From contig JAZDJU010000037.1 of the NCBI GenBank assembly GCA_043803685.1, positions 64,001-128,000 of the forward strand: 64,000 nt of DNA, written 5' to 3'. Positions within the stretch are counted from its first letter, which is position 1. Each line of letters opens with the position of its first letter. This document shows positions 10,357 to 56,106 of this stretch, one piece after another. The notes below the pieces were generated by a model, which was not told where the DNA came from, searched no databases, and saw nothing but the letters and a program-made list of their open reading frames with translations. Both the position numbers and the translations under genes were made by a program. The stretch comes from Candidatus Omnitrophota bacterium (lineage in GTDB: Bacteria > Omnitrophota > Omnitrophia > Omnitrophales > Aquincolibacteriaceae).

Positions 10357-10440
10357 CGTATTTTGTAAGTCGTATATTGTATGTCGTTAAATGCTCTTTG
10401 ACCTTTTCACCGTATTTCGATATACGACATACGATTTACT
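10357..10440. repeat. Heptamer-array inverted repeat element (rpsG-fusA spacer)
   Basis: Left arm cgtattt/tgtaagt/cgtatat/tgtatgt; right arm atttcga/tatacga/catacga is the reverse-complement family. Confidence 0.7.
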
Positions 10441-10445
10441 TCCTT

Positions 10446-10913
10446 CTACCACCGATAATGCGCGAAAGCCCTATTCGCTTCCGCCATCTTGTGCATATCT
10501 TCCCGCTTCTTGATCGAAGGGCCCGTCTTATTAAAACCGTCGATGATCTCCTGCGCCAACTTTTCGTGCATAGGCTTTCCCTTGCGGTCACGGGAATAGC
10601 TGCGGATCCAACGAAGAGCTAGGGAGTAACCTCGATCTTCAGAAACGCTGACCGGCACCTGATACGTCGCCCCACCTACGCGCCGGGACTTTGTCTCCAG
10701 GAGAGGGCGCACATTATCTAACGCCGCGCGGAAAACTTCAAGAGGTTCTTTTGATGTTTTTTCTTTGACGATATCGAGGGCATCATACACGATTCTCTCG
10801 GCGGTGGACTTCTTGCCGCATTCCATCACGATGTTGATGAACTTAGCGATCAAGAGATCCCCGTAGCGCGGGTCCGGATCGATCAATCTTTTTTGAGCGC
10901 GTCTTCTTCTCAT
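10446..10913 (-). CDS. rpsG: 30S ribosomal protein S7
   Basis: [12 protein letters not shown] and [15 protein letters not shown] motifs. Confidence 0.99.
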
Positions 10914-11302
10914 GTTTTCTTAGCATCCTTTTTCGGGGTTTTCGCGCCGTACTTCGAACGCGATTTTTTGCGGTCCGCAACGCCGGAGGCATCCAGTTTC
11001 CCGCGAACAATATGATAACGAACGCCCGGAAGGTCCTTGACGCGACCGCCGCGCACGAGCACGATCGAGTGCTCCTGGAGGTTATGACCCACGCCCGGAA
11101 TGTATGCCGTCACTTCCTGCCCATTCGTCAGACGCACACGGGCGATCTTTCGGAGAGCCGAGTTCGGTTTTTTCGGAGTTTGGGTTCTGACGATCAAGCA
11201 CACGCCTTTGCGGAACGGAGAATTTTGCAATGCGGGTGACTTAGATTTTCCTTTAAACTTATTCCTTCCAAAACGGATCAACTGGTTGATGGTCGGCGCC
11301 AT
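10910..11302 (-). CDS. rpsL: 30S ribosomal protein S12
   Basis: [11 protein letters not shown] and [12 protein letters not shown] motifs. Confidence 0.99.
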
Positions 11303-14300
11303 TATGAAATCTCCTTGGATGCGCTGGCTTCTTCGGCAGCTTTTTCTTTCTTCCCGGCGTCAGGGTCCGGCAAAACATCAGAAAGATCTTTGATGAGGTC
11401 AATATTATGGTGGATCTTGAAACCCGTTCCCGCGGGGATCAAATGCCCCATAATGACATTCTCTTTGAGCCCTTGCAAAAAGTCCCGCTTGCCGGCAGAA
11501 GCCGCTTCCGTGAGCACGCGCGTGGTTTCCTGAAAACTCGCGGCCGAAATAAAACTGTCTGTCGTAAGCGACGCCTTGGTGATCCCCAGAAGGATCGAGG
11601 TGCCTTTGGCGGGCTCCTTACCTTTCTTGATCATCTTGGCATTCTCTTCCGCAAACTTAAGTTTCTCGACATGCGAACCGACGAGGAATTCCGTATCTCC
11701 TGAATCCTCAATGCGAACCTTGCGGAGCATCTGGCGGACGATCGCCTCCACGTGCTTGTCGTTCAGTTTGACCCCTTGCAAACGATAGACTTCCTGAACT
11801 TCGTCCACGAGATACTGCTGCAGATTTCTTTCCCCCGAAACACGGAGGATATCCTGCAACACGACAGGACCGTCCACGAGTTGCTGGCCGGCGAGGACCC
11901 TGTCCCCCTTGTACACGTTCAAGTGCTTACCGTGAGGAATCAAATATTCCTTAGCCATACCGGTCGAGCTCTTCACGATGATCTTGCGTTGCCCCTTCAC
12001 GATCTCACCGATTTCCACCACACCATCGATCTCGGAAATAACGGCCGGATTCTTTGGCTTGCGGGCTTCAAAAAGTTCCGCAACACGTGGAAGACCGCCT
12101 GTGATATCGCGGGTCTTGGCGATCTTGCGCGGCGTTTTCGCGAGAAGCGTTCCGCCCGTGATCGCTTGTCCATCCTTCACCACAATGTGCGCCCCTGTCG
12201 GGATCGGATAGAACGCGATAATCTCGTCCTTATCCCCAACCAAAAGCAATTGCGGATGCATGTCTTCTTTGTGCTCGATGATCACGCGCTCGGTCAAACC
12301 GGTGGTCGCGTCGAGCTCTTCATTCATCGTAACGCCAGCTTTAATGTCCTCGAAACGAACCTTTCCGGAAACCTCGGTCAAAATCGGAACTGTATACGGG
12401 TCCCACTTCACAAAGATCTCACCCTTCTTGACCTTTTCCCCGTCTTTAAAATGGATAAACGCCCCGGTCGGGATCGTGTATCGTTCGAGCTCGCGACCCG
12501 TTGCGTCGTGAAGCGACAGTTGGCCGTTACGATTAAGCACGACAGTTTCGTTCGTTTTCGTGACGACCGTTTTCAAATTGTGGGACTGTAAAAAGCCTTC
12601 ATTGCGTGCGCGGTAATAGGACTGCTCGACCACACGTGACGCCGTTCCACCGATATGGAACGTACGCATGGTCAACTGAGTCCCGGGTTCGCCGATGGAC
12701 TGTGCGGCAATAATACCGACCGCGGTCCCATGCTCCACAAGACGGCGCGTCGCAAGATCCCGTCCGTAACATCTCGCGCAAATACCTTTTTGAGATTCAC
12801 AGCAAAGCACCGAGCGAACGCGGATCTTCTCGATCCCCGCGCCTTCGATCTTCTTGACAATGTTTTCATCAATGAGATCGCCAGACTTAACGATTACCTG
12901 GTCAGTGATAACGTCCACAACGTTGTCCAAAGCCACGCGCCCGAGGATCCGGTCGTACAGGGACACGATCACTTCTTCACCCTCGTACACAGGTTCCATC
13001 ACGATCCCGTTCAAGGTGCCGCAATCGTCCAAGCTAATAATCACATCTTGCGCCACATCCACCAAACGACGGGTCAAATACCCAGAGTCTGCCGTCTTAA
13101 GCGCGGTATCAGCCAAACCTTTACGCGCACCGTGAGTGGAGATGAAATACTCAAGCACAGTCAAACCTTCGCGGAAATTGGCAGTGATCGGGCTTTCGAT
13201 GATCTCACCGGAAGGCTTCGCCACCAGTCCGCGCATACCGGCCAACTGGCGAATCTGCTGTTTCGAGCCACGGGCACCAGAGTCGGCCATCATAAAAATT
13301 GGATTGAAAGCATCAAGCGCTTCAAACATCACGTCCGAAACGCGGTCGGTGGTATGCGTCCAGACGTCGATGACTTTGTTGTAACGTTCACCGTCGGTAA
13401 TGACGCCCTGCTTATACTGACTCTCAATGGCTTTCACTTCTTTGCGGGCTTCATTTAAAATGCCCTCTTTAGCATCAGGGATCTGAATATCATCGATCCC
13501 GATGGAAAGACCGGCCTTAGTCGCTTCCGCAAAACCGAGCGCTTTCAATCTATCGAGAAGCATCACAACAGCTTCATGTCCGAACGTGTTGTAACATTCC
13601 GCAATAATCTTGGAAAGCTTGCCCTTATTCACAATGTCGTTTACGTGACGGAACCCCTCGGGAAGCTCTTCGTTAAAAATAATGCGCCCCATGGTCGTTT
13701 CCACGATCTCGCCGGTCTCCAAGCGAAGTTTGCACTTCGCGTGTTTATGGATCTGCCCGTCCTGATAAGCGAGCATCGCCTCTTCCGCGTCGCTGAACGC
13801 CAGACCTTCTCCGAGAACCTTATCGCGAACTTTGGTCAAATAATAGATCCCGAGGACGATGTCCTGCGTCGGCGTCATGATCGGCTGTCCGCTCGCGGGC
13901 GAAAAAATATTATTGGCAGAGAGCATCAGAATTCGCGCTTCCATCACAGCCTCCATGGAAAGCGGCACGTGAACGGCCATCTGGTCACCGTCAAAGTCGG
14001 CGTTGAAGGCCGTACAAACGAGTGGATGAATGCGGATAGCGTTGCCTTCAATCAGCATGGGCTCGAAAGCCTGAATGCCCAAGCGATGGAGCGTCGGCGC
14101 GCGGTTCAGCATTACCGGATGTTCTTTAATCACTTCTTCCAAAATATCCCATACTTCGGGCTTCACGCGCTCAACCATTTTTTTCGCAGAGCGAATGGTA
14201 TGCACATGCCCGCGTTCCTTGAGCTTGCGGATAATGAACGGTTCGAAAAGTTCGAGCGCCATTTTCTTAGGCAACCCGCACTGGTGGAGCTTGAGCTCGG

Positions 14301-15351
14301 GACCGATCACGATGACGGAACGGCCGGAATAGTCCACGCGTTTTCCAAGAAGATTCTGACGGAAACGTCCCTGCTTTCCTTTGAGCATATCGCTCAAGGA
14401 CTTAAGCGGACGATTCCCTGCGCCAAGCACCGGCCGACCGTGACGACCATTATCAAAAAGGGCGTCCACAGCTTCCTGAAGCATGCGCTTTTCGTTGCGA
14501 ATGATGACATCCGGCGCCTTGAGCTCGAGAAGCTTACGCAGACGGTTATTCCGATTGATCACGCGGCGATAAAGATCGTTCAAATCGCTCGTCGCGAAAC
14601 GACCGCCATCCAGGGCCACCAACGGACGAAGATCGGGCGGAATCACAGGAATCACTCGCATGATCATCCATTCCGGATGATTGCCAGATTTATAAAAAGC
14701 TTCGACGATCTTGAGAATCTTGACGGCGCGAGCGCGGGACTGCTTGGACTTGGCGGCTTTGAGCTGACGATGATATTTCGCCGTCAGTTTATCCAACTCC
14801 AACTCCGACAAAAGCGTCTGGACGGCTTCGGCGCCCATTTGTGCCACAAAATTTTCTGGCCCATACTGCTCCTGCGCCTTCAAATATTCATCTTCCGTCA
14901 AAAGCTGCCGCGGCTTAAGCGGAGTCTGCTTCGGATCGAGCACGATATATTCTTCATAATAGAGAACTTTCTCAAGAGCACGCACGCTCAGATCGAGCAA
15001 GTTCCCAATACGCGACGGCATGGTCTTAAAGAACCAGATGTGAGAGACCGGCGTCACAAGATCGATATGGCCCATTCGCTCGCGACGAACCCGAGCTTGG
15101 GTAACTTCCACGCCGCAACGGTCGCAAACGATCCCCTTGTGCTTGATGCGCTTATACTTGCCGCAGGCACATTCATAATCTTTCGTGGGGCCAAAAATTC
15201 GCTCGCAAAAAAGACCGTCTTTTTCCGGCTTAAGCGTACGATAGTTGATCGTTTCAGGCTTCTTAACCTCGCCCCGGGACCATTTACGGATCGATTCGGG
15301 CGACGCTATGCGGATTGAAACAGAATCAAAAGTATTCACGTTGTAGTTCAT
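11302..15351 (-). CDS. rpoC: DNA-directed RNA polymerase beta' subunit
   Basis: [10 protein letters not shown] catalytic motif; N-terminal Zn finger CACGKYK...CDRC. Confidence 0.99.
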
Positions 15352-19142: not shown

Positions 19143-19198
19143 TATTTTTCGTCCTCCTTAAGGACAGCGTTCCTGATTCACCCGTTAATTGCGGGGTC

Positions 19199-19612: not shown

Positions 19613-19671
19613 GGCTGATGCCTCCTTGATTGAATTTCCTTTATCAGGACATTCGTTGTGTTCTGGCGTTC

Positions 19672-22516: not shown

Positions 22517-23715
22517 TTACGCGATGATCTCGCTGACAACGCCGGCACCGACCGTTTTTCCACCCTCACGGATGGCGAATCGGAGCTCTTTTTCCATTGC
22601 GACCGGCATGATCAGTTCCGCTTCGATTGCAACGTTATCGCCCGGCATGACCATCTCAACGCCGGCCGGCAAAGTCACGATCCCCGTAACATCGGTAGTG
22701 CGGAAATAAAACTGAGGCCGATACCCTTTGAAGAACGGCGTATGACGGCCGCCCTCCTCCTTGCTTAACACATAGATCTGCGCTTTGAACTTTTTGTGAG
22801 GGGTCACGGAGCCAGGCTTCGCGATAACCATCCCTCTTTCGATCTGATCCTTTTCAACGCCGCGCAAGAGAAGACCGACGTTATCGCCGGCACGCGCATC
22901 ATCAAGCAGCTTGCGGAACATTTCAACGCCCGTCACCGTGGTCTTCATCGCACCTTCTCGAAAACCGATGATCTCGGCATCATCTCCAACCTTGACCACG
23001 CCGCGCTCAATACGACCGGTGGCAACCGTTCCACGACCGGAGATGGAAAACACGTCTTCCACCGGCATCAAAAACGGCTTTTCAATATCACGCTTCGGCT
23101 CGGGATGGCTTCATCCAACGCCTTAACGAGATCCATAATGCACTTGTTGGCTTTTTCATCCGTAGGATTCTGGACCGCGGGAAGGCTGGAACCGCGAACG
23201 ATGGGAATCGTGTCACCCGGAAAATCGTATTTCTTAAGAAGATCCCGGACTTCCATCTCGACGAGGTCGAGAAGTTCGGTGTCTTCGACAAGGTCACATT
23301 TATTGAGGAACACCACAACCGCAGGCACACCGACCTGGCGGGCGAGCAGAATGTGCTCACGAGTCTGGGGCATCGGTCCATCCACGGCAGAAACGACCAG
23401 GACCGCACCGTCCATCTGCGCAGCGCCCGTGATCATGTTCTTGATGTAGTCTGCGTGTCCCGGGCAGTCGACGTGGGCATAATGGCGTTTTTCCGATTCA
23501 TACTCCACATGGGAGACCGCGATCGTTACGATCTTGGAATCGTCACGAACCGTTCCACCCTTGGCGATATCCGCATATTCACGAACCGTCGCCATCCCCT
23601 TCGCCGACAACACCTTCGTCAAAGCGCAGGTCAAAGTTGTTTTTCCGTGGTCCACGTGTCCGATCGTTCCGACGTTCACGTGAGGCTTGGTACGTTTAAA
23701 TTGCTCTTTTGCCAT
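22517..23715 (-). CDS. tuf: Elongation factor Tu, split by a 1-nt deletion near 23100-23104 (probably an assembly error)
   Basis: [17 protein letters not shown] and NKCD in the 5' [18 protein letters not shown]...GAGVV in the 3' ORF. Adding one base restores [18 protein letters not shown] and a 399-aa protein. Confidence 0.96.
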
Positions 23716-24875: not shown

Positions 24876-24952
24876 CGGGAAACGTGGAACGGGCAACGAA
24901 AATGAGAAATCTTTTTCCGTTCAACATTCGCCGCTAGCCGTTTTCCCGTTTT
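24876..24952. repeat. Heptamer-array inverted repeat element (degenerate), upstream of the atp promoter
   Basis: cgggaaa/cgtggaa/cgggcaa ... cgttcaa/cattcgc/cgctagc/cgttttc. Confidence 0.55.
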
Positions 24953-24964
24953 CTGCATCTTGCC

Positions 24965-27474: not shown

Positions 27475-28977
27475 ATGCTCAAACCTGAGGAAGTCACGCA
27501 AGTCATCCAAAAAGAGATACAGAAATACGAGACCAAGCTCGAAATGCAGTCGGTCGGTTACGTGCTGCAGGTCGGCGACGGCATCGCCCGCGTTTATGGC
27601 CTCGACGAGGTCATGGCCGGCGAACTGGTCACGTTCCACGAGGGAACGACGGGCCTCGTGCTGAACCTCGAGCCGCACCACGTCGGCGTGGTCATTCTGG
27701 GCGAAGACAGCAACATCAAGGAAGGCGACCAGGTCAAGCGCACGGGCAAGATCGCGCAGGTCCCTGTCGGCGAGGCCCTGAAGGGTCGCGTCATTAATCC
27801 GCTCGGAGTACCGCTCGACGGCAAAGGGCCGATCGTCTCGCAAAAGACGCGCCCGATCGAATCCCTGCCTCCCTCAGTCGTCCAGCGTCAACCCGTCAAG
27901 GAACCTTTGCAGACCGGCATCAAGTCGATCGACGCGATGATCCCCATCGGTCGCGGCCAGCGCGAGCTCATCATCGGCGACCGCCAGACCGGGAAGACCG
28001 CCATCCTGATCGATACGATCTTGAACCAGAAGACGACCGGCGTGCATTGCATTTATGTCGAGATCGGACAGAAATTGTCGAGTGTCGTGGCGCTTGCGGA
28101 TACGCTCGAAAAACAAGGCGCGATGGAATACACCACGATCGTGTCCGCCTCTTCCGACGATCCCGCTCCACTTCAATACCTCGCGCCTTATGCCGGCGCC
28201 GCGATCGGCGAGGAATCCCTTTTTAATGGAAAGCATGCCCTGGTGGTCTACGACGACCTTTCGAAACACGCCGTCGCTTATCGTCAGCTGTCGCTCCTCC
28301 TTCAAAGACCTCCGGGACGCGAAGCCTATCCGGGCGACGTTTTTTATCTTCATTCACGCCTGCTCGAGCGCGCGGCCAAACTGCGCGAAGACCTGGGCGG
28401 CGGCTCGCTCACCGCGCTTCCCGTGATCGAAACACAACTCGGCGATATCTCGGCTTATATTCCGACGAATGTCATTTCCATCACCGACGGACAGATCTAT
28501 CTGGAAAGCGATCTTTTTTACGCGGGCGTGCGGCCGGCCATTAACGTCGGTCTTTCGGTTTCGCGCGTCGGCGGAAATGCCCAGACCAAAGCCATGAAAC
28601 AGGTCGCTGGCATGTTGCGCCTTTCACTCGCGCAGTACCGGGAACTCCAGGCGTTCGCCCAACTCGCGACCGACCTCGACAAAGCCACCAAAGATCAGCT
28701 CACCCGTGGCGAGCGCATGGTCGAGATCCTGAAACAGACCGACCTTCATCCGCTCCCCCTTGAAAAACAGGTCGTGAGCATTTTCGCCGGGAACGAAGGC
28801 TTTCTGGATGATGTTCCCGTCACCAAGGTGCGGGACTTCGAGACGAAGCTCTTGGACTTCATCGACAAGAACTATCATGAGGTCCTGCTCGAGATCGCGG
28901 AGAAAAAGGTCCTTTCGGACGCGCTGAAAGAAACCATGAAGCAAGCGGTCGTTAAATTTAAACAAACCTTTAAATGA
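27475..28977 (+). CDS. atpA: F0F1 ATP synthase subunit alpha
   Basis: GDRQTGKT Walker [22 protein letters not shown]. Confidence 0.99.
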
Positions 28978-29052
28978 CGGATAACGGATGGAGGATGGAG
29001 GATGACGACAGGCAAGGTTTTTCGCCTTCCGCCATCCGCCTTCCGCCATCCA
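28976..29052. repeat. Heptamer-array inverted repeat element (atpA-atpG)
   Basis: gacggat/aacggat/ggaggat/ggaggat ... ttccgcc/atccgcc/ttccgcc. Confidence 0.8.
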
Positions 29053-29062
29053 TAGCGAAGCT

Positions 29063-29929: not shown

Positions 29930-29932
<3 letters not shown>
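29063..29932 (+). CDS. atpG: F0F1 ATP synthase subunit gamma
   Basis: KITKAMEMVAAAK, SDTGLCGSFN and RQAAITKELIEI motifs. Confidence 0.98.
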
Positions 29933-31426
<1,494 letters not shown>

Positions 31427-31429: not shown

Positions 31430-31500
31430 CAACGAGCCACGTTCCACGAGCCACGAGCCACGGATTTTAGAGTCCGTGGTCCTTGGCCCGTGGCCCCTGG
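31430..31500. repeat. Heptamer-array inverted repeat element (atpD-atpC)
   Basis: caacgag/ccacgtt/ccacgag/ccacgag/ccacgga ... tccgtgg/tccttgg/cccgtgg/cccctgg. Confidence 0.85.
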
Positions 31501-31510
31501 CACAGGTTTA

Positions 31511-32337: not shown

Positions 32338-33015
32338 CTATGCGCTGAAATATTTCCGAAGGATGACTTTCGGATCCATCGCGAGAAACTCAATAAAAGT
32401 CTGGGTTTTCAGGTAGGCGTTCCTGAATGCGTCGCTACGGCACATCACCGTAAGCCGTTTGATACAACTCTTGGACGTTTCGGTGACGTGTTCGCGAAGT
32501 TCGGCGATCACACGATCCGCCTCGGCCGGATGATCCCGGTGGATCCAGAAAACGTTCATCGCCAGCCGTACGATCGCTTCTTCCAGGCTCATAAGCGGCA
32601 CGATCCCTTTGAAATAAGGCTGGTATCGCTGGACGTCTTCGCAATACTCAAAAAGAGCCATGTTCGTGACATACTGGAGGGCATGTTGGAGATCGGTCTC
32701 CGAGATCGTGATCTTGCCGTCGCCTTGAACATAGATGGCCGTCACATAATCGCACGAAAGATACTTTTCCATTTGTTCGAGGAACGGCAGAAGTGGTTTC
32801 ATCGCCGAGCAGAGCACGTCCTGTCCCCGGTGAGGACAGACCTTGCAGGTCTTGAAATCGTCATGTTGCCGCATTGCAAGAGGCAGGCGATGAGGATCCT
32901 TCCAGAACTCTTCGCTCAATTTTTGGATGTTCTCGACGGAAAGATCCAGGGTCTCCCCATTCTGGAAGGAAAGGTACATCCCTTCTTTTTTGTATTGCTC
33001 CGTCTTCAGTTGCAT
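32338..33015 (-). CDS. Hypothetical Cys-containing protein (resembles DUF6901)
   Basis: CKVCPH...C motif; GGAG SD before ATG 33015; family resemblance is from memory and unverified. Confidence 0.55.
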   Translation of the reverse strand: MQLKTEQYKKEGMYLSFQNGETLDLSVENIQKLSEEFWKDPHRLPLAMRQHDDFKTCKVCPHRGQDVLCSAMKPLLPFLEQMEKYLSCDYVTAIYVQGDGKITISETDLQHALQYVTNMALFEYCEDVQRYQPYFKGIVPLMSLEEAIVRLAMNVFWIHRDHPAEADRVIAELREHVTETSKSCIKRLTVMCRSDAFRNAYLKTQTFIEFLAMDPKVILRKYFSA

Positions 33016-33063
33016 ATCCGAACTCCTTGTGAAAAACATTCGCTACAGGCTTTGAGCTCTTGA

Positions 33064-33261
33064 CTAGAGTCTTCGGTCTTCTGTCTTAGGTCTTCCATCC
33101 TTAGCCTTCTTCCATCCTTCAATGATCAGCGTGACACCCACGAGAAAGAACGAAAGGAACCCCAGAAATGAAAAGACCATGCTAGGAAGCGTTCCCACCC
33201 AGAACGCGCAAAGAATAAGAACGGCCCCGGGAAGGAAATATTGCCAAAGATAGCTTCTCAT
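33064..33261 (-). CDS. Small hypothetical membrane protein (2 TM)
   Basis: 65 aa, two hydrophobic segments; the C-terminal tail is encoded by a gtcttnn heptamer array. Confidence 0.55.
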   Translation of the reverse strand: MRSYLWQYFLPGAVLILCAFWVGTLPSMVFSFLGFLSFFLVGVTLIIEGWKKAKDGRPKTEDRRL

Positions 33262-33397: not shown

Positions 33398-34276
33398 ATG
33401 ATCGAGGTCTTGCTGGACGCTTTCAAAGATACGTTGGCCATGGCGCCGTGGCTTCTGGGGATCTATATCGCGCTCGAGTTCCTGGAAAACCGGTCGGAGT
33501 CCTTCATCGGCGAGAAGATCAGCCACCGGATGGGCGCGGCGCCTCTCCTGGGCGCGCTCTTCGGCTGTATCCCCCAATGCGGCTTCTCGGTCATCGCCGC
33601 CACGCTTTTTGCCCGCCGGTGCATTTCACTCGGAACTCTCATTGCCGTTTTTATTTCGACCTCGGATGAAGCAGTCCCGGTTATCCTCGCCCAACACGAC
33701 AAGGCGCCGCTCGTCCTCTGGCTCCTGTTTGTAAAAGTGATCCTCGCAACGGTCGCGGGCTACGCAGTCGACTTTTTTTGTAGAAAAGATAATCCCCGGG
33801 AACCGCATTCGTCCCACGCCCCCGTCGTCCCTCAGGGAGGATACCGCCACTGCAGCTGTCACGCCCACGGCCGGGAAATTCCCCGGTGGAAAACATTCTT
33901 TCTCTTCCCGCTCAAACACACGCTCAAAGTCCTTTTCTTCATTTTCGCGGTGTCGCTGTCGATCGGTCTTCTTGTCGCGAGATCCGGAGAAGCGGGCCTG
34001 GAGCACCTTTTTTTTTCAGGCACGCTCCTGCAACCATTCTTTTCCGTCCTTGTCGGCCTGATCCCGAACTGCGCGGCTTCGGTCGCGATCACCGAGATCT
34101 ATCTGAAAGGCGGCATCACTTTCGGCTCCGCCGTCGCGGGCCTTTCGGCAAGCGGCGGTCTGGGCTTCCTGGTCCTTCTCAAAGAGAACAAGGACCGGAA
34201 AGAGAACGCACTCGTCATCGGACTTCTCGTGCTGATCAGTCTTACCGCCGGAATTCTTCTGAATATATTGACCTGA
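33398..34276 (+). CDS. Putative metal/metalloid transporter ('putative manganese transporter' family)
   Basis: Duplicated G.IPQCGFS / GLIPNCAAS motifs, STSDEA, His/Cys-rich central loop (HSSH...HCSCHAH); AAGGAG SD. Confidence 0.75.
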   Translation: MIEVLLDAFKDTLAMAPWLLGIYIALEFLENRSESFIGEKISHRMGAAPLLGALFGCIPQCGFSVIAATLFARRCISLGTLIAVFISTSDEAVPVILAQHDKAPLVLWLLFVKVILATVAGYAVDFFCRKDNPREPHSSHAPVVPQGGYRHCSCHAHGREIPRWKTFFLFPLKHTLKVLFFIFAVSLSIGLLVARSGEAGLEHLFFSGTLLQPFFSVLVGLIPNCAASVAITEIYLKGGITFGSAVAGLSASGGLGFLVLLKENKDRKENALVIGLLVLISLTAGILLNILT

Positions 34277-34354
34277 CGTACGGCGCAAGGCGTACATCCT
34301 ATCGCGAAGAACATTTTCTTTTTCTCCGCACGCCGTGCTCCGTATGCGTAACGC
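34275..34354. repeat. Heptamer-array inverted repeat element (degenerate)
   Basis: gacgtac/ggcgcaa/ggcgtac ... ccgcacg/ccgtgct/ccgtatg. Confidence 0.55.
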
Positions 34355-34720: not shown

Positions 34721-34727
34721 ATAACTG

Positions 34728-34796
34728 CATAACGCGCAACGGGCAACGCACAACGGAAATGGTTTCGTTGCGCTTTGAACGTTGTACGTTGAGCGT
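34728..34796. repeat. Heptamer-array inverted repeat element
   Basis: cataacg/cgcaacg/ggcaacg/cacaacg ... cgttgcg/ctttgaa/cgttgta/cgttgag. Confidence 0.85.
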
Positions 34797-34811
34797 AAAA
34801 AGGAGTGTTCC

Positions 34812-38907: not shown

Positions 38908-38957
38908 CGGGAAACGTTGAACGTGGAACGCAGAGAAATTCCGTTACCCGTCCCCCG
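38908..38957. repeat. Heptamer-array inverted repeat element (short)
   Basis: cgggaaa/cgttgaa/cgtggaa ... ttacccg/tcccccg. Confidence 0.55.
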
Positions 38958-38975
38958 AGGAAACGGTATTTAAAC

Positions 38976-40720: not shown

Positions 40721-40774
40721 GGAAGCGTGGAACGGTTCTCGGGGAACGGATCGTTCTACGCGGCACGTTCCCCG
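40721..40774. repeat. Heptamer-array inverted repeat element (degenerate)
   Basis: ggaagcg/tggaacg/gttctcg/gggaacg ... cgttcta/cgcggca/cgttccc. Confidence 0.55.
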
Positions 40775-40793
40775 GCCTTTCAGGAGGTGCTCT

Positions 40794-45588: not shown

Positions 45589-45696
45589 TAAAGCGGTCGG
45601 CGTTAAGCGGACAGCGTAAAGAATATTAAGTGAATGATAGGTGAACGATTATATTTTCAGCCGTTCTGAACGCTTAGCGCTTGACGCTGTACGCTA
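45589..45696. repeat. Heptamer-array inverted repeat element (dut-ftsK)
   Basis: taaagcg/gtcggcg/ttaagcg/gacagcg ... cgcttag/cgcttga/cgctgta/cgcta. Confidence 0.8.
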
Positions 45697-45700
45697 CGGT

Positions 45701-46165: not shown

Positions 46166-46245
46166 AAGTCGTAAGTTATAAGCGATAAGTTGTAAGAAAT
46201 GCGTCAGAGCAAAAACTTACAACTTACCGCTTACCCCTTACAGCT
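46166..46245. repeat. Heptamer-array inverted repeat element (pnp-dut)
   Basis: aagtcgt/aagttat/aagcgat/aagttgt ... cttacaa/cttaccg/cttaccc/cttacag. Confidence 0.85.
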
Positions 46246-48432: not shown

Positions 48433-48503
48433 GTGAGGTTACACCTTTCGCTTGTGAGATTGGGACTTCTTCAAGATAAGAGCAAAAAACTGAAACGAGG
48501 AAA

Positions 48504-48773: not shown

Positions 48774-48920
48774 TTTCTTCCTAACTCCTTGTGCTTTCGT
48801 CGGTTATGTCGTTTATCTCATCTCTGAGGTTGCGGGAGTATACTCTACCCCCCCTCCTTTTGTCCAGATTTTTCGACCGGCCCCCTATTTTCAAAATCCC
48901 GCCGCGCCTCACCCGATCCG

Positions 48921-49967
48921 TTAAGGATTGGGATGGGAGACCCGCCATAACTTCCCATGACACCGCCTTGCGGCTAAAACATCGTTCCGGATCTTGGCCT
49001 TGAGCGCCTCTTCCGACTGGAATTTCTTCTCAGGGCGAAGAAAGCGATGGAGGGCCACTTCCATCATCTCGCCATAGACCTGCCCTTTAAAATCAAGAAG
49101 GTGCAGCTCCAGGACGGGACGCGGCGTCTCTCCCTTGGGATAGGTCGGCCGCTTTCCAAAATTCATGACGCCGGGAAGCCAATCCCCTGTGCCACGGGAC
49201 ACGGGACACGGGACACGTAAAGCCCAAGGACTTTTTCGTGGCTCGTGGTGCGTGGCACGTGTCCCGGAAGCTAAGAACCTCGCCGAAGCGACATACACCC
49301 CTAGCGGCAGCAGAACTTCCGAATGGACCTCGAGATTCGCCGTCGGGAACCCGAGGTGAGCTCCGTGGCCTTTTCCGTGAATGACTTTGCCGTACATGCT
49401 GAAAGGCCGGCCGAGGCATGCCTGGGCTTTCTCGACCTCTCCCTTCATAAGAAGCTCACGAACCCTGGAGCTGGAAATCGGTTTACCTCCTAGCATCACG
49501 GGTTTCATTTTTTTAAAAAGGAATCCGTTCGAGCGCGCGAGCCGTGCCATGAGACCCGTGTCCCCCTTCCGCCCGCGGCCGAAGTGAGCATCGTAGCCCA
49601 TGCATATCTCGCGAATGTGAAGCCGCTTCACGAGGATCTTCTTCGCGAAATCTTCGGGCGTCATTTTCGCAAAGGCCGGCGTAAAAGACTGAAGGAAACA
49701 AAGATCGATCCCGGCTTGCGCCAGATAAAAAAGTTTCTGCTCGACGCTCATGAGCATCATGGGTTTGCGTGACGGATGGAGCATGCTATGCGGGTGCTCG
49801 GGAAACGTCAGAACTGCGGCGAGGGCGCGTTCCTTTTTCGCCTGCCGGACCACGTAACGCAGGAGTTTTTGATGGCCGAGGTGAAAGCCGTCGAAATTCC
49901 CCAACGCAAGAACGATGGGCCGCGACGAACAGGCTTTATACTTTCGAAGGTCCGGGAGGATCTGCAT
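48921..49967 (-). CDS. ribF: Bifunctional riboflavin kinase/FAD synthetase with a repeat-derived in-frame insertion
   Basis: GNFDGFHLGH, ISSSRVR, GFPTAN, G.RPT and LRPEKKF motifs. Confidence 0.96.
   Translation of the reverse strand: MQILPDLRKYKACSSRPIVLALGNFDGFHLGHQKLLRYVVRQAKKERALAAVLTFPEHPHSMLHPSRKPMMLMSVEQKLFYLAQAGIDLCFLQSFTPAFAKMTPEDFAKKILVKRLHIREICMGYDAHFGRGRKGDTGLMARLARSNGFLFKKMKPVMLGGKPISSSRVRELLMKGEVEKAQACLGRPFSMYGKVIHGKGHGAHLGFPTANLEVHSEVLLPLGVYVASARFLASGTRATHHEPRKSPWALRVPCPVSRGTGDWLPGVMNFGKRPTYPKGETPRPVLELHLLDFKGQVYGEMMEVALHRFLRPEKKFQSEEALKAKIRNDVLAARRCHGKLWRVSHPNP
49186..49267. repeat. Heptamer-array inverted repeat element inside ribF
   Basis: cacggga x3 + cacg ... cgtggct/cgtggtg/cgtggca/cgtgtcc. 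Confidence 0.85.
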
Positions 49968-50676: not shown

Positions 50677-51032
50677 TAGGAAGTTTTGTCCTTTTCTTCG
50701 ATCTTGCGAATGACCTGTCCTATCTCGAAATCCTTGTCGAGCGAGTCGTCCAGTTCAAATTGGAGCTTCGGCGTGTAACGCATCTTGATCGCCAGACCCA
50801 CCTCGTGCTGAAGGAACCCAGCCGCACGCTCGAGGACCTTGAGCGTTTCCTCTTTCTTTTTCTTGTCACCCATCACGCTAATGAACACGACGGCGGATTT
50901 GAGATCCGGAGTGATCTTCACGTGCATGACGGTCACGAACCCAAGGCGCGGGTCCTTGATCCGTTCCAGAATAAGACTGCCCAACTCCATCTGAAGGAGC
51001 GACGCCACGCGTTCCGTCCGTTTCCCTTGCAT
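50676..51032 (-). CDS. rbfA: Ribosome-binding factor A
   Basis: DPRLGFVTV, TPDLK.A and RYTPKLQF..D.S motifs. Confidence 0.96.
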   Translation of the reverse strand: MQGKRTERVASLLQMELGSLILERIKDPRLGFVTVMHVKITPDLKSAVVFISVMGDKKKKEETLKVLERAAGFLQHEVGLAIKMRYTPKLQFELDDSLDKDFEIGQVIRKIEEKDKTS

Positions 51033-51048
51033 ACGCTGCCCTCCAATT

Positions 51049-51107
51049 AAAAAGGCGTCACTGAAAGCGCCAGAACCAGGGCCCGGCTTTCTTTTTCAGT
51101 GACGCCT
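51049..51107 (-). terminator. Hairpin/terminator-like structure between infB and rbfA
   Basis: 14-bp inverted repeat aggcgtcactgaaa/tttcagtgacgcct followed by a T-run on the minus strand. Confidence 0.55.
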
Positions 51108-51120
51108 CCGTGATGGATGA

Positions 51121-53361
51121 TTATAATTTTGCGGCGAATTTGTCGATGCGATAAGATTCCAACAAGTCCCCTTCGCGAAGATCGTTGAAACCTTCCAGGG
51201 CGACCCCGCATTCGTAACCTTCCGCGACTTCCTTGACATCGTCCTTGAAACGTTTGAGGGACGACAACTTCCCATCGAAGATCACGACGTTATCGCGCAC
51301 GAGCCTCACGCGATGCTGCCGCGTAATGCGTCCTTTCATCACGATCGCCCCGCCGATATTTCCGACCCTTGAAGATTTGAAGATCTGGCGGACCTTGGTC
51401 TTGCCTTCGACCACTTCCTTGAGGTCTGGCTCCAGAATGCCTTCCATGGCTTTGCGGATCTTCTCGACCGCTTCATAAATGATGCTGTAAAAACGGATGT
51501 CCACGCCCTCTTTTTCCGCAAGGACTTGAGCTTTCGGATCGGCTTTGACATGAAAACCGATGATGATCGCATCAGAGGCCGCCGCGAGCATTACGTCCGA
51601 TTCGTTGATCCCGCCGACAATACCGTGGATCACGTGGAGCCGGCACTTTTCGGAGCTGATCTTTTCAAGCGACTGCGTGAGCGCCTCGATCGAGCCTTGC
51701 ATGTCCGCCTTGATGATGATCTTGAGCTCTTTGAAATTCCCTTCCGAAAGTTTCGAATAGAGACTTTCAAGCGACATGTGTTTCGGCGTCCCGCGCATCT
51801 GCCGTTCCCGGAGCTCCAGGACCTTTTGCTCCGTGATCGTTCTCGCGGTCTTCTCATCGGCTACCGCATAGACTGTCTCTCCCGCTTCGGGCACGCCGTT
51901 CAGGCCGCTCAATTCCACCGCATAGGCGGGACCGGCCTCGCGCACCATTTTCGCGCGGTCATTTTTCATGGCGCGGATCCGCCCCGTATACTGGCCTGCC
52001 ACCACAATATCGCCAAGCTTTAAGGTCCCCTTCTGGACGACCACGCTCGCGACAGGTCCACTTCCCTTTGAAATATGACTTTCGATCACAATGCCCACGG
52101 CCAGGCGATCGGGATTGGCTTTCAGTTCCAGGACTTCGGCCTCAAGAAGCAACATGTCCAGAAGATCCTCAATCCCTTTTCCGGTTTTCGCGGAAACTTT
52201 TACGACGATCGTCTTGCCGCCCCATTCTTCAGGCACGAGCCCGATCTTTTGCAGCTCTCCAAGAACTTTGGCGGGATTCGCGGCCGGAAGATCGATCTTG
52301 TTCATCGCCACCACAATCGGGCAACCCGCCTCACGCGCGTGGTCAATGGCCTCGATCGTTTGCGGCATCACGCCGTCATCGGCCGCCACCACGAGAACGA
52401 CCACGTCCGTCACGTTCGCGCCTCGGGCGCGCATGGCGGTAAAGGCCTCATGGCCCGGCGTGTCGAGAAACGTCACATGTCCTTTGCCCGGGATATCGAC
52501 GCCGTAAGCGCCGATGTGCTGGGTAATAAAACCTTTTTCTTTGGCCGCAACGTTCGTACTGCGGATCGCGTCAAGAAGCGATGTCTTGCCGTGGTCAACA
52601 TGTCCCATCATCGTCACGACCGGAGGCCGCGGCTTCAGCTGCGTGGGATCTTCGACCTCTCCACTCTTGATGATCTCCCGAGCCTCGTCTTCCATCTTGG
52701 TAATTTCGATCCCGAGAGCCCCACCGGCCGCGTAAACGATCTCTTCGTTCAAAAGCTGGTTCACATTCGCGAAAATGCCGATGCCCATCAGCGCCTTGAT
52801 CACTTCCGGAAGCCTCCGGTTCATCTTCTGAGCTAAGTCCCCGACGGTGATCGGAAACCGGATCGCGATCGTAGGCTTGGCGGGCGGAGGCGGCACCACT
52901 GGCTTTGGAGCGGGAACGACCGAGATCTCCGGCTTTGCTTTAGGTGTTTCCACGACAGGCGCAACCTTAACCTGAGTAACTTCGGGAGCCTTAGGCGCCA
53001 CCGGTTTCACCTCAGGCTTTTTCTCAACAACGGGAGGTGCGGAAGGTTTTTCTTCTTTTTTAACAGGGGCAGCCACGGCGACTTTGGGAACGACGCCCGC
53101 AACGACCGGTTTCGGAACCTGCGCTTTGACGACCGCAACAGGTTTCGCCTCTTCAACGGAAGGCTTGTCCACGGACTTAGTCTCTGCGAGAACTTTGGTC
53201 TTGGCCGGAGCCTTAGCAGTAACTTTTTTTTCTTTGACGACTTTGGTTGCAGGAGCTTTTACAGATGTCTTTTTGGGCAACTCGATCTTCTCGGTGGAAG
53301 CCTTCACAGTTTTTTTGACCGGCGTTTTTTTCTCTTTGGCTTTTTCTTTTTTTTCGGGCAT
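51121..53361 (-). CDS. infB: Translation initiation factor IF-2
   Basis: [20 protein letters not shown] and NKID motifs; Lys/Pro/Val-rich N-terminus; start trimmed to ATG 53361 just after the nusA stop. Confidence 0.97.
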   Translation of the reverse strand: MPEKKEKAKEKKTPVKKTVKASTEKIELPKKTSVKAPATKVVKEKKVTAKAPAKTKVLAETKSVDKPSVEEAKPVAVVKAQVPKPVVAGVVPKVAVAAPVKKEEKPSAPPVVEKKPEVKPVAPKAPEVTQVKVAPVVETPKAKPEISVVPAPKPVVPPPPAKPTIAIRFPITVGDLAQKMNRRLPEVIKALMGIGIFANVNQLLNEEIVYAAGGALGIEITKMEDEAREIIKSGEVEDPTQLKPRPPVVTMMGHVDHGKTSLLDAIRSTNVAAKEKGFITQHIGAYGVDIPGKGHVTFLDTPGHEAFTAMRARGANVTDVVVLVVAADDGVMPQTIEAIDHAREAGCPIVVAMNKIDLPAANPAKVLGELQKIGLVPEEWGGKTIVVKVSAKTGKGIEDLLDMLLLEAEVLELKANPDRLAVGIVIESHISKGSGPVASVVVQKGTLKLGDIVVAGQYTGRIRAMKNDRAKMVREAGPAYAVELSGLNGVPEAGETVYAVADEKTARTITEQKVLELRERQMRGTPKHMSLESLYSKLSEGNFKELKIIIKADMQGSIEALTQSLEKISSEKCRLHVIHGIVGGINESDVMLAAASDAIIIGFHVKADPKAQVLAEKEGVDIRFYSIIYEAVEKIRKAMEGILEPDLKEVVEGKTKVRQIFKSSRVGNIGGAIVMKGRITRQHRVRLVRDNVVIFDGKLSSLKRFKDDVKEVAEGYECGVALEGFNDLREGDLLESYRIDKFAAKL

Positions 53362-53362
53362 G

Positions 53363-54586
53363 TTATCCACCTGTCTCTTCCCGCCCTTCTTCAATAACGT
53401 CAGGGGCTTTTTCTCTCGCTCCTTCTTCCGCAGAAACTGATTTTTCGGTCGGGTGACTTGCGCTGCCTTTGGGAGCCATAGCTTCTTTGGCTGACGCGAG
53501 GATCTTTTCGGCCGTTTTAGGACCGATCCCCGGGATCTCGGAAAGCTCTTCCACCGTTTTTTTGAGAAGTTCCCGGAGCCCCTGGATCCCGGCTTCCTTA
53601 AGGATCTGCTCCGTCTTTTCTCCAATGCCTTCCAGCGAAGCGAGGGGGATCTTTTGCGCGGCACTGCGCACATCAAGCTCCCAACCGATCAACTTTGAAG
53701 CAAGGCGCACGTTCTGTCCCCTCTTTCCGATCGCAAGCGACAACTGGTCGTCCTCGACCAGAATCTCCGCGCTTTGCCGTTCGGGATTCAAGGTGATCTT
53801 CTTGAGTTCCGCAGGCGCCATGGCGTTCCTGATATAAGTTTCAATGTCATCGCTGTGGCGGATAATATCGATCTTCTCGCCCCCGAGTTCGCGAACGATG
53901 CTTTTAACGCGCTGCCCCCGAACCCCCACGCACGAACCCACACAATCGATTTTTTCGTCCATCGAAGTCACGGCGATCTTGGTGCGGGATCCGGCTTCGC
54001 GCGCCACACCCTTGACCTTCACGAGCCCATCGTGGATCTCCGGCACTTCCATTTCAAAGAATTGCGTCACAAGGTCCGGATGCGTCCTCGATAAAATGAC
54101 CTCCGGTCCCTTGGCTGTTTTCTTGACTTCCATCACGTACGCGCGCACCACATTCCCTTGGCGAAAACTGTCGAGGGGCGATTGCTCCCGCGCGGGCAAA
54201 ATTCCTTCTGTTTTTCCGAAATCCACGATGATCGCTTTGGACTCGATCCGGTGGACGCTTCCGGAAACGATGTCGCCCTGCTTGTGGCTGTATTCGTTAA
54301 AAATGGATTCCCGCTCCGCTTCGCGGATCTTTTGAATAATAACCTGTTTGGCGGTCTGCGCGGCAATGCGTCCAAAACGGGGATCGTTGATCTCTTTGCC
54401 GTCCAGGAACATGGTAATGCGAAAGGTCTTCGGATCGATCTGCACATCAAAGACGTCACCCTTTTCGGGTGAACCTTTGCGGCAGGCGGAAATGAGGGCA
54501 TGACGAAGGGCATCCAGGAGAACTTCCTTGGTGATCCCCTTTTCTTTTTCGATATATTCCAGCGAAGCTAGCAAATCCTGTGACAT
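53363..54586 (-). CDS. nusA: Transcription termination factor NusA
   Basis: FGRIAAQTAKQVI, FEMEVPEI, AREAGSRTKIAV and AIGKRGQNVRLA motifs; C-terminal HhH repeats. Confidence 0.97.
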   Translation of the reverse strand: MSQDLLASLEYIEKEKGITKEVLLDALRHALISACRKGSPEKGDVFDVQIDPKTFRITMFLDGKEINDPRFGRIAAQTAKQVIIQKIREAERESIFNEYSHKQGDIVSGSVHRIESKAIIVDFGKTEGILPAREQSPLDSFRQGNVVRAYVMEVKKTAKGPEVILSRTHPDLVTQFFEMEVPEIHDGLVKVKGVAREAGSRTKIAVTSMDEKIDCVGSCVGVRGQRVKSIVRELGGEKIDIIRHSDDIETYIRNAMAPAELKKITLNPERQSAEILVEDDQLSLAIGKRGQNVRLASKLIGWELDVRSAAQKIPLASLEGIGEKTEQILKEAGIQGLRELLKKTVEELSEIPGIGPKTAEKILASAKEAMAPKGSASHPTEKSVSAEEGAREKAPDVIEEGREETGG

Positions 54587-54615
54587 TTTGTCCCTGATCC
54601 CTTCCGTGTCCCGAG

Positions 54616-54649
54616 AAAAAAAAGAAGTGGGTTTGTGCGCCCACTTCTT
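54616..54649 (-). promoter_or_regulatory. Terminator/attenuator hairpin in the nusA leader
   Basis: aagaagtggg-cgcacaaa-cccacttctt followed by a T-run, between the promoter and nusA. Confidence 0.7.
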
Positions 54650-54673
54650 CGCATTCCTAAAATTGATGACCGT

Positions 54674-54701
54674 ATTATATGGAGAATCTCGTGGAAGTCA
54701 A
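54674..54701 (-). promoter_or_regulatory. Sigma70-type promoter of the nusA-infB operon
   Basis: TTGACT-16 nt-TATAAT on the minus strand. Confidence 0.7.
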
Positions 54702-54819
54702 CGAGAGTATCTTGAGCCCTCTTCGGCGGCACTCTAATGGAACGAGGTCTATTGAGGGTCTAACCTATTTCCAAAAAAAGAGTTACACGTGAGACGCTTC
54801 GTTGGGGCAGCTTCTCTAT

Positions 54820-55713
54820 TTACTCCGGACGGGTTCGCCAACGCCGATGGGCCCATAGCCAATCGCCGGGACGCTTGCGGATCTCTTCTTCGATCTTCGC
54901 AACGTATTGCTGGGTGTTGGCTAAAAGATCAGCCTGAAGGTCCCCGGTTTTGATCAGGGGGAACAAAGGGCCATACTGGATCTTCGAGCAACCGCTTTCG
55001 TCGCGATAAAAGAACGCTGGCAGTACCGGATAATCATACTTGAGAGCAAGCATCGCCGGCAACGTACTCGTCGCCGCCTTGCGCCCGAAAAAATCCACCC
55101 ACACGGACCCGCGGCTTTCATGCTGATCGATCAGGACCGCCAGGATCCCGCGTTTTTTGAGAACCTCGATGGAGGATCTCACGGCGCCTGATTTTTCGAT
55201 ATTGGTCAGATTCGCCGCCTCGCGCATTTTCCGGACATAGCGGTAAAGATAAGGATTCTTCAGGGGGCGCCCAACAGCATGGACATGGAGCCCGTATTTC
55301 TGGATGGGGATCGCGAGCCACTCCCAATTTCCGAAATGGGAGACGATCGCGATGAAACCGCCCTTTTTTTTCACCGCTTCCATGAGCGGCGCTACCTCAG
55401 GCGGCGTGATGTATCGCTCGGGAAACGCGGACGCTTCGGGCGTGCGCAGAAACTCGAAAGCGAGCTTGAAAATATTCCGGATCGATCGCTCCGCGATCCC
55501 GAGAAGTTCCGCCTCAGTCCTTTCGCCGCTAAAGGCTAGGCGAAGATTCTTGAGCATGGTCTCCCTCCGAACACCGAAAAAGCGGACCGCGCAGATCCCG
55601 AGAGCATCTGCGATCTTGTAGCTAATGCGAAGAGGAATGAGACGAAGCAGGAATGCCAGGAGTCTGAAGATGGCGTATTCGAGAAGAAAGCAGGCCTTTT
55701 TGAGAGGATTCAT
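54820..55713 (-). CDS. Lipid A acyltransferase (LpxL/HtrB) family lysophospholipid acyltransferase
   Basis: HFGNWE, LIDQ, FFG..A.T and PGDWLWAHRRWR motifs. Confidence 0.9.
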   Translation of the reverse strand: MNPLKKACFLLEYAIFRLLAFLLRLIPLRISYKIADALGICAVRFFGVRRETMLKNLRLAFSGERTEAELLGIAERSIRNIFKLAFEFLRTPEASAFPERYITPPEVAPLMEAVKKKGGFIAIVSHFGNWEWLAIPIQKYGLHVHAVGRPLKNPYLYRYVRKMREAANLTNIEKSGAVRSSIEVLKKRGILAVLIDQHESRGSVWVDFFGRKAATSTLPAMLALKYDYPVLPAFFYRDESGCSKIQYGPLFPLIKTGDLQADLLANTQQYVAKIEEEIRKRPGDWLWAHRRWRTRPE

Positions 55714-55893
55714 AAAAAGAATCTTATTGATTAAGAGTGGGAATGCCAAAGCCCACGCTTTGGCACTGCAAAAAAATCGAAACTTGTGGTTTCGATTTGC
55801 TGTCGCCGCCTTTTAAAAGAACCTTAAAAGAGCGCGGTCGCCGTACACGGCCTTCCTTAAAAGTGACGGCGCCGTGCTGATTCATTAGGAATC

Positions 55894-55964
55894 AGCGGGC
55901 AGCGGGAATCGAACCCGCATGACTAGCTTGGAAGGCTAGGACATTACCATTATGCTATGCCCGC
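55894..55964 (-). tRNA. tRNA-Gly (TCC)
   Basis: GCGGGCA acceptor stem, CTTCCAA anticodon loop, GGTTCGATTCC. Confidence 0.96.
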
Positions 55965-56040
55965 ATGGTCGGCCTTGAAAACGGGGGCCATTCTAACGGA
56001 GGAATAAAGGACGCGCTACTTTTTTTAGCTCCCCAAAAAG

Positions 56041-56106
56041 CACAACGATCAACGCGCGACGTTCGACGAAAAATCCTTCGCTGACCGTTATGCGTCGCGC
56101 GTTGCG
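56041..56106. repeat. Heptamer-array inverted repeat element overlapping the SDR stop codon
   Basis: cacaacg/atcaacg/cgcgacg/ttcgacg ... cgctgac/cgttatg/cgtcgcg/cgttgcg. Confidence 0.75.

Follow-up and report, generated by a model that had tools for sequence, protein, structure and literature searches.

Tandem repeats of seven nucleotides have been described in several groups of bacteria, and a 64,000-nt stretch of a Candidatus Omnitrophota genome (contig JAZDJU010000037.1, positions 64,001 to 128,000 of the forward strand, GenBank assembly GCA_043803685.1) contains 14 loci at which such heptamers form, with one exception, the paired arms of small palindromes. We refer to the whole stretch as the window (G000:C37:64001-128000, G000 being the source genome) and to the palindromes as heptamer hairpins. 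The over-representation of heptanucleotide repeats in bacteria has been noted since at least 2007 and is unexplained; as reported by MacGregor (2015; PMC4679880; this and the following papers are cited from excerpts), Mrazek (2007) found them to be the commonest long simple repeats, and a 7-nt polymerase contact was proposed. In Xanthomonas campestris and X. axonopodis, (GGGANTN)n or GGGAATC repeats, mostly of four units and mostly intergenic, form 70-75 convergent inverted pairs per genome and were interpreted as G-quadruplex formers (Rehm et al., 2015; PMC4692102). The G000 hairpins resemble them in combining conserved with free positions, in having typically 4-5 units and in being convergent inverted pairs able to form a stem-loop. 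They differ in that the Xanthomonas repeats are one G-rich family, whereas G000 has about ten families, most of them unable to form a G-quadruplex (the cores CCACG, AGAC, CAACG, GTAAG and TAGCG contain no G-tracts) and tied to cassettes carrying a PF05635 gene; the excerpts of the Xanthomonas paper draw no link to an enclosed gene (PMC4692102). In Geobacter metallireducens, four or five tandem heptanucleotides (consensus GGACCGG; MTYCTGA) occur between and within genes, one class being drawn as a strand-switching hairpin; their annotation is as putative regulatory RNA or as sites where a regulator binds (PMC2700814). The unit number, the presence of several families and the location between and within genes are all shared with G000. 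Marine Beggiatoaceae carry 2-6 copies of TAACTGA by start codons and sometimes in open reading frames (ORFs), with a patchy phylogenetic spread; there, 169 direct sets of a single heptamer stand against one indirect repeat, in contrast to the inverted pairs in many families found here (MacGregor, 2015; PMC4679880). Three tandem heptanucleotides known as short tandemly repeated repetitive (STRR) sequences in Calothrix PCC 7601 and only a few inverted heptamer pairs in Nostoc are mentioned by Rehm et al. (2015; PMC4692102). Inverted heptamer pairs as such are already in print.

STRR sequences of heterocystous cyanobacteria, scattered through non-coding DNA, are tandem heptamers of more than one sequence family and are known mainly as direct arrays. 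They share the tandem heptamers and the plurality of families with G000 and differ from its inverted pairs. Rickettsia palindromic elements (RPEs) and repetitive extragenic palindromes with their associated tyrosine transposases (REP/RAYT) are likewise dispersed palindromes and fall into several families. Protein-coding genes tolerate RPEs in frame, as ribF, valS, nadE and others do the hairpins of G000, and REP families have a cognate enclosed gene. The G000 elements have no known sequence or protein relation to either, and RPE and REP arms are not tandem short-period arrays.

The 23S rRNA intervening sequences (IVSs) are the nearest printed link between heptamers and the protein S23p, whose structure was solved in 2006 and for which a function is lacking. 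The IVS of Coxiella burnetii is excised by RNase III and contains GACAGAT heptamers of variable copy number beside an S23p ORF; IVSs are regarded as selfish, with a suspected mobile origin, and the Xanthomonas S23p is a homopentameric toroid (Warrier et al., 2016, and work cited there; PMC4990558). Like the IVSs of Coxiella and Leptospira, the S23p cassettes of G000 have a PF05635-family ORF enclosed by inverted repeats whose pairing gives a long stem. The IVSs lie in helix 45 of 23S rRNA, and the Coxiella ORF is decaying (PMC4990558); the G000 cassettes and gene-less elements lie in mRNA spacers and ORF interiors, and here the gene is under purifying selection and present in 1-7 copies per genome having it. 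Our literature search by protein-family names and by IVSs with S23p, with subscription journals largely outside it, returned no paper linking genome-wide heptamer hairpins to S23p cassettes.

We consider it probable (roughly 0.6) that the elements of the window are the gene-less form, similar to MITEs (miniature inverted-repeat transposable elements), of a small palindromic S23p cassette that is kin to the 23S rRNA IVSs. The full form would be a four-helix-bundle S23p gene between two inverted arrays of tandem heptamers. An earlier note on the window, made from its letters alone, had proposed looking for filled copies whose arms enclose a cargo ORF, and the genome of origin (a draft of 2.89 Mb in 133 contigs, 52% G+C) supplied them: it contains five PF05635 (23S_rRNA_IVP / S23p) genes, and all five lie between inverted short-period arrays, with period 7 in four cases and period 8 in one (Table 1). 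Among 31 genomes from this order, 27 had PF05635 matches, about 100 altogether. At 59 of the 94 loci examined in these 27 genomes, G000 included, both flanks reached at least 14/21 matches at lag 7 and the arms were complementary at 11/14 positions or more. A few cassettes have period-8 arms (C47:6245-6559, L160, L166 and L170), which fits with the 28 lag-8 arrays in the G000 genome, 22 of them outside crude gene calls.

The cassette gene encodes a four-helix bundle of ~105-120 aa, which matched PDB entry 2gsc (XCC0516; five chains in the entry) with an E-value of 2.8e-20. In ten close pairs, the proportion of nonsynonymous differences (pN) was 0.08-0.18 vs. 0.41-0.94 for synonymous ones (pS), and the corresponding rate ratio dN/dS was 0.03-0.14 where dS was estimable; the gene is under purifying selection. 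Clades of the protein tree (34 proteins) follow the heptamer family. Among 57 cassettes, compared in pairs across genomes, proteins of at least 70% identity shared 5.86/7 heptamer positions, as against ~3.4/7 below 50% identity, and none of 1000 Mantel-type permutations reached the observed correlation between protein and heptamer. Cassettes and empty hairpins occupy the same niche, i.e., transcribed spacers that reach from a stop codon up to the following ribosome-binding site, and not a 23S rRNA helix. Wherever the flanking genes are recognisable, the S23p ORF is co-directional with them; by eye, the C103 cassette lies between the end of a sensor kinase and the start of a response regulator, and the C47 cassette between an ArgRS-like end and a MiaA-like start. 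CCACG and AGAC are the two commonest gene-less families in G000, and also the two that have an intact cognate cassette there.

To count the gene-less form, we scanned G000 with a 21-nt window at 16 or more lag matches, for which four units are the detection floor. The genome gave 203 arrays at lag 7 vs. 2 in a shuffled genome; the other lags between 4 and 15 gave 0-44, except for lag 14 with 86. An inverted partner (15/21 or more matches to the reverse complement, no further than 110 nt away) was present for 130 of the 203, compared with 11, 28 and 20 for reversed, complemented and direct controls. After merging, the paired arrays yielded 103 hairpins with a median length of 74 nt (range 50-217). 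This partner search replaced an earlier detector of adjacent strict arrays, which was too strict and returned 30 pairs. The architecture described in the earlier note is therefore real and far above chance.

The unit consists of a core of ~5 nt plus 2 variable nucleotides, and 152 of the 203 arrays have 4-5 units. The loop is often an A-tract, a few bases and a T-tract, and AAAGCTTT-like centres are common to several families. There are about ten recurrent core families rather than free heptamers: among the 103 hairpins we assigned 27 to CCACG, 24 to AGAC, 14 to GGATGG/GGAGGG, 7 to TAAGCG/GTAAG, 6 to TAGCG/TAGGG/ATAGC, 5 to GGAACG, 3 to GAGT, 2 each to CAACG and GTACGG and 1 to GGTAGT, with 12 outside any family. 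Polarity does not vary. In 22:0 cases CCACG is the first arm and CGTGG the second; AGAC precedes GTCT in 24:0 and GGATG precedes CATCC in 7:0, which makes 53:0 for the three families. Across all families, A outnumbers T in the 5' arm of 85 of 100 elements. The earlier statement that the heptamer mostly differs between copies is accurate within the window, but genome-wide the same cores recur many times, and the idea of period and symmetry kept without conserved sequence has to be given up in favour of families with conserved 5-nt cores and fixed polarity. Slippage of the register by 7 nt, an option raised in the earlier note, was borne out: with the arms aligned symmetrically their complementarity was 0.69, a shift of 7 nt left 0.59-0.66 and one of 14 nt 0.48-0.60, and other shifts gave 0.22-0.30. 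The arms pair via their cores alone, and the hairpins are register-slippery.

Next to the atp genes, we compared the junctions of 18 congeners (61-80% AtpG identity) and two further genomes of the order; AtpG relatives at 33-37% identity were left out. Lag-7 scores of at least 14/21 were obtained at 10 of 19 readable atpA|atpG junctions and at 10 of 19 readable atpG|atpD junctions, with at least seven different consensus heptamers on each side of atpG. The families include GGATG, AGAC, GGGACTC, GTACG, CAACG, CCACG and CGAC-type units at atpA|atpG, and TAGSG, CAACG, GTACG, GGAACG and GTAAGT at atpG|atpD. Some junctions have no array, e.g., both sides of atpG in G013. In G010 (L082, G010:C6) an AGAC-family array takes the place of the stop codon of atpA and is translated, which extends AtpA by ~9 C-terminal residues. 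At atpG|atpD, where G000 has an empty hairpin, G021 carries a complete cassette of arrays, S23p ORF and inverted arrays. Occupancy and family thus turn over between congeners at the same junction, and the presence, absence and differing families are not plain vertical inheritance, which the earlier note had named as an outcome that would speak against its proposal.

If the hairpins derive from S23p cassettes, hairpin load is predicted to follow the presence of an S23p gene. We counted core patterns on forward and reverse strands (31 genomes for CCACG). CCACG in three units was found 85 times in G000, 62 in G007, 24 in G014 and 11 in G016, with 2-7 matches in six genomes and none in 21. AGAC in four units was found 108 times in G010, 82 in G002, 59 in G000 and 54 in G016, and in further genomes; CAACG in three units was found 127 times in G006, 110 in G017, 100 in G002, 83 in G004, 67 in G001 and 54 in G011, compared with 5 in G000. 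A CCACG-flanked S23p gene occurs only in G000 and G007, the two genomes richest in CCACG, and an AGAC-flanked gene was found in seven genomes, with 12-108 AGAC matches there. In contigs C1-C5, four genomes lacking a PF05635 match had 2 lag-7 arrays in 257.6 kb vs. 32 arrays in 400 kb for four genomes with such matches (4, 14, 13 and 1 per 100 kb). The association between load and gene is suggestive and not proven, since the genomes are kin, so that the counts are not independent, and some are incomplete.

Copies also occur inside genes. That the elements sit inside essential operons, as the earlier note had it, applies to the window; about a quarter of the genome copies are within ORFs. Intragenic status was judged from Pfam stretches, because the crude gene caller over-called ORFs across elements and its split of 84 coding vs. 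119 intergenic was disregarded. At least eight elements are within ordinary genes. In ribF, the Pfam flavokinase stretch (185-335) has 151 residues vs. 124 profile positions, and an insert of 90 nt lies between the conserved ARFL and WLPGV.NFGKRPT. A hairpin lies between these two anchors in 16 of 17 congeners, always with a length that is a multiple of 3 nt, and the insert is 90 nt in 8 of the 17 genomes. It is of CCACG type in G000, G007, G004 and G014 and of CAACG type in G017, G006, G010, G001 and G002; G003 has GGGGAACG, G011 has GGCAACG, five genomes have a plain G+C hairpin, and G013 has 27 nt and no hairpin. Single Pfam stretches with an element-sized surplus were also seen in a MiaB-like radical-SAM enzyme, ValRS, NadE and two DUF1016/SNase paralogues. 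At C79:23490-25730 two GT9 (heptosyltransferase) domains share one frame of 747 codons with a GGAGGG-family hairpin between them, possibly the result of a gene fusion across an element that lacks stops.

The elements keep 3.16 of 6 frames open, compared with 2.17 of 6 in their own shuffles. Frames that run for 2000 codons or more without a stop make up 10% of the genome and contain 18 of the 103. Very long ORFs are typical of Omnitrophota. The stop-free frame at C98:3356-16108 (4251 codons) encodes PAS, histidine-kinase and receiver modules together with a glycogen synthase (GT5+GT1), and has six heptamer hairpins at or between modules, several of them with near-identical peptide flanks. Being poor in stop codons, the hairpins could weld neighbouring genes together. 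Term searches of two papers on Omnitrophota giant genes (10.1101/2023.11.21.568195; 10.64898/2026.06.07.730766, a preprint with 176 complete Omnitrophota genomes) gave no mention of heptamers, hairpins, tandem repeats or palindromes. That hairpins are tolerated in frame, both within essential enzymes and where modules of very long ORFs meet, bears on mRNA processing in operons and on the possible assembly of giant genes.

We infer both the mobility of the element and the function of S23p; mobility is deduced from turnover, because the relatives share only 61-80% AtpG identity. New copies would arise by insertion or replacement at spacers or existing hairpins, and the arms would lengthen and shorten by slippage of 7 nt. 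The cores might be conserved through the resident S23p pentamer, each subunit reading one core, and this would account for the period, for arrays of usually 4-5 units and for the 2-nt spacers being free. The transcribed stem would be a substrate for RNase III as in the 23S IVSs, leaving processed or protected mRNA ends within operons; an RNase III gene, rnc, is encoded in G000 (C117:27340-27720). To our knowledge, S23p has no transposase activity, and we know of no catalytic motif in its four-helix bundle. G000 and its relatives tie heptamer repeats to S23p, from which we predict paralogue-specific cores bound by paralogue-specific pentamers. A more far-reaching version, which we put forward tentatively and regard as doubtful, is that S23p pentamers read heptads such that each paralogue recognises its own 5-nt core on its own cassette and on dozens of gene-less hairpins, a network in operon mRNAs that the host uses or tolerates, and that stop-poor hairpins weld neighbouring genes and add to very long ORFs such as the C98 frame, in which a sensor kinase module and a glycogen synthase have hairpins at their joints.

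Several results weigh against the derivation of the hairpins from mobile S23p cassettes. We saw no insertion event, no target duplication and no empty/filled pair among near-identical genomes; at the atp junctions in particular no target-site duplication is visible, although inverted ends and a gene-carrying partner are present. No cassette to match their hairpins was found in G001 (67 CAACG), G014 (24 CCACG) or G016 and G028 (AGAC), and G021, despite four PF05635 genes, yielded 1 array per 100 kb in the sample. Co-inheritance of the whole cassette would by itself give the co-divergence of protein and arms, and recognition is not proven by it. Beyond the cores, selection on pairing of the sense RNA was not detected in 69 elements, in which G.U-type mismatches numbered 123 in the sense and 123 in the antisense direction; the equal counts fit either RNA or DNA as the active form. 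The G000 assembly has no match to large-subunit (23S) rRNA, and the genome itself may carry an rRNA IVS copy in addition. Finally, the ribF hairpin, of constant length (90 nt in 8 of 17), changes family in place, for which concerted change in situ is no worse an explanation than re-insertion. Any insertion must therefore be accompanied by concerted change or by adaptation to the resident protein.

The rival that survives best is that heptamer microsatellites arise at pre-existing intergenic hairpins as a mutational by-product of polymerase slippage and are homogenised by slippage and hairpin-templated correction, with no mobility, partner or function. Perfect recent expansions, e.g., six identical AGACCAC units at C72:89640, and the pairing of arms in registers shifted by 7 or 14 nt are expected under it, as is the ribF hairpin that keeps its site and length while its core shifts among the related CCACG, CAACG and GGAACG. 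In many bacteria, moreover, heptanucleotides are reported to outnumber all other long simple repeats (PMC4679880). However, variation is limited to ~2 of 7 positions with the same 5-nt cores at dozens of loci in several genomes, polarity is invariant over three families, and unrelated families replace one another at atpA|atpG. Slippage alone also leaves aside that PF05635 genes are flanked by arrays whose sequence tracks the protein tree, and that sampled genomes lacking PF05635 are nearly free of arrays. We consider this explanation unlikely.

Less likely again are operator- or centromere-like arrays of double-stranded DNA, in which a dimeric protein unrelated to S23p binds each 7-bp unit and regulates or organises the chromosome. 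The heptad binders of the ribbon-helix-helix class are the comparison here. The strict period with free 2-nt spacers suits such a binder, and so do cores equally conserved on both arms and wobble pairs showing no strand asymmetry. A single 2.9 Mb genome with about ten different cores does not, nor do copies between co-transcribed atp and ribosomal cistrons and in frame in valS, nadE and ribF; the family at a given site differs among congeners, and no candidate binder was identified.

That the elements are ordinary intrinsic terminators or attenuators, repetitive by accident, is more improbable still, and the earlier note had listed ordinary terminators as a finding that would count against its proposal. 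Many elements begin directly after stop codons and fold stably, as terminators do, but a T-rich tail follows the 3' arm, on one strand or the other, in only 15 of the 103 hairpins. They are therefore not canonical terminators, and the terminator reading was rejected on the U-tract criterion. The elements are also located between cistrons that need co-expression (atpA|G|D|C, rpsG|fusA), at least eight are in ordinary genes and 18 in very long open frames.

Bacterial interspersed mosaic elements (BIMEs) or REP-like palindromes moved by a RAYT (Y1 transposase) are hardly credible: the genome has three Y1_Tnp genes and its dispersed intergenic palindromes fall into several families, but heptamer arrays flank none of the three genes, one of which has an unrelated inverted repeat of its own. 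Each arm is moreover a tandem array rather than a single short palindrome, and the gene that the arrays enclose is PF05635.

Within the window, each of the 14 loci was scored at lag 7 against 1000 shuffles and by RNA folding (z) against 200 dinucleotide shuffles. The best lag was 7 at 12 of the 14 loci, the exceptions being 40719 and 45587 (lag 11 with score 11 vs. lag 7 with score 10 at the latter). At 12 of 14 loci the observed lag-7 score was matched by at most 11 of the 1000 shuffles; 34275 and 40721 lacked a significant lag 7. Eleven of the 13 paired elements folded at z of -1.9 or below (strongest -8.55, -5.94 and -4.60); the 24876 element fell short of this value, and 38908 folded no better than its dinucleotide shuffles despite a periodic left arm. 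The list of 13 paired elements in the earlier note thus stands for the most part, with 38908, which has no stable hairpin, and 40721, which has no significant period 7, as weak members. The locus at 33069 had been called a solo arm and indeed forms no hairpin. A strict window scan (21-nt window, at least 15 lag-7 matches) detected 12 arrays, compared with 0-6 at other lags, and the list is complete for the window since every one of the 12 falls within a listed locus. Tandem Repeats Finder reported period-7 or period-14 arrays at 10 of the 14 loci, and pattern searches find the arrays as well, contrary to the expectation that repeat finders would miss the family. From the gene map and sequence reading, ~9-10 of the 13 elements start within 14 nt of a stop codon on the coding strand, which agrees with the earlier "many" and puts a figure on it. 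None of the 13 carries an ORF between its arms. At the gathering score, Rfam matched four tRNAs only in the window, and the hairpins match no family.

Table 1. Heptamer loci of the window (window coordinates) and PF05635 cassettes of G000 (contig:position), with RNA-fold z and the number of shuffles out of 1000 that matched the lag-7 score.
Feature	Position	Fold z	Shuffles (of 1000)	Remark
CGTATnn-type hairpin, rpsG stop/fusA start, - strand operon	10357..10440	-2.85	11	
GGAACG-type hairpin, divergent spacer upstream of atp operon	24876..24960	-1.72	8	
GGATGG-family hairpin filling the atpA|atpG spacer	28973..29053	-4.45	0	begins in atpA stop codon; in genome catalogue
TAGCG/TAGGG-family hairpin filling the atpG|atpD spacer	29930..30009	-4.60	0	first unit is the atpG stop codon
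CCACG-family hairpin, atpD|atpC spacer	31430..31504	-5.94	0	
Solo arrays, GTCT then CATCC units, upstream of - strand gene 32338-33039	33065..33120	+1.65	3	no partner arm
GTACG-like hairpin after stop of gene 33398-34276	34275..34347	-3.24	58	periodicity weak
CAACG-family hairpin upstream of small lysine-rich ORF	34727..34798	-4.13	0	
GGAACG-type left array after tspO stop	38908..38965	+0.56	1 (left arm only)	right arm decayed
Plain hairpin with GGAACG motifs	40721..40785	-2.20	458	period 7 not significant
TAAGCG-family hairpin, dut stop/ftsK start, - strand	45589..45700	-2.43	11	long AT-rich loop
GTAAGT-family hairpin, pnp stop/dut start, - strand	46166..46245	-8.55	0	
CCACG-family hairpin in frame inside ribF (flavokinase domain)	49183..49264	-1.95		Pfam stretch, translation, alignment
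CAACG/CGACG-type hairpin overlapping end of short-chain dehydrogenase gene 56088-56987 (- strand)	56041..56106	-2.51	4	
PF05635 cassette	C100:14316-14630			arms CCACG
PF05635 cassette	C103:50822-51139			arms AGAC
PF05635 cassette	C79:9048			arms GCNCAAA
PF05635 cassette	C47:6245-6559			arms octamer GTATCANA
PF05635 cassette	C129:31868			arms AAATTTG-like

A few further candidates and observations concern the elements or their surroundings. A link to RAYTs was rejected on finding no Y1_Tnp gene between heptamer arrays. S23p is related to Avd of diversity-generating retroelements (DGRs). A reverse-transcriptase link was rejected, the genome having one reverse-transcriptase gene, too few for ~100 hairpins. 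At C24:900-2422 an RVT_1 gene is preceded by an A-rich stretch resembling a DGR template repeat, with a heptamer hairpin (1457-1519) between the two; no S23p/Avd match was found on this 5.2-kb contig. Just upstream of the RNase III gene lies a GTACG-family hairpin (C117:27096-27164), a proximity that could be due to chance because there are 103 elements among ~2600 genes. Arrays of different families are adjacent or chimeric at C31:18825-18890, L117, L118 and L124, e.g., a CAACG left arm facing a CGTGG right arm, and may represent nested or neighbouring elements.

Elsewhere in the window, the EF-Tu gene (22517-23715, - strand) is split into two overlapping ORFs with a frame change just past "...LDEAIP", which could be an assembly indel or a genuine frameshift. 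Positions 63218-64000 consist of ~7.5 copies of a 102-nt (34-aa) tandem repeat, the tetratricopeptide repeat (TPR) array of the gene at 62900-63940 (- strand).

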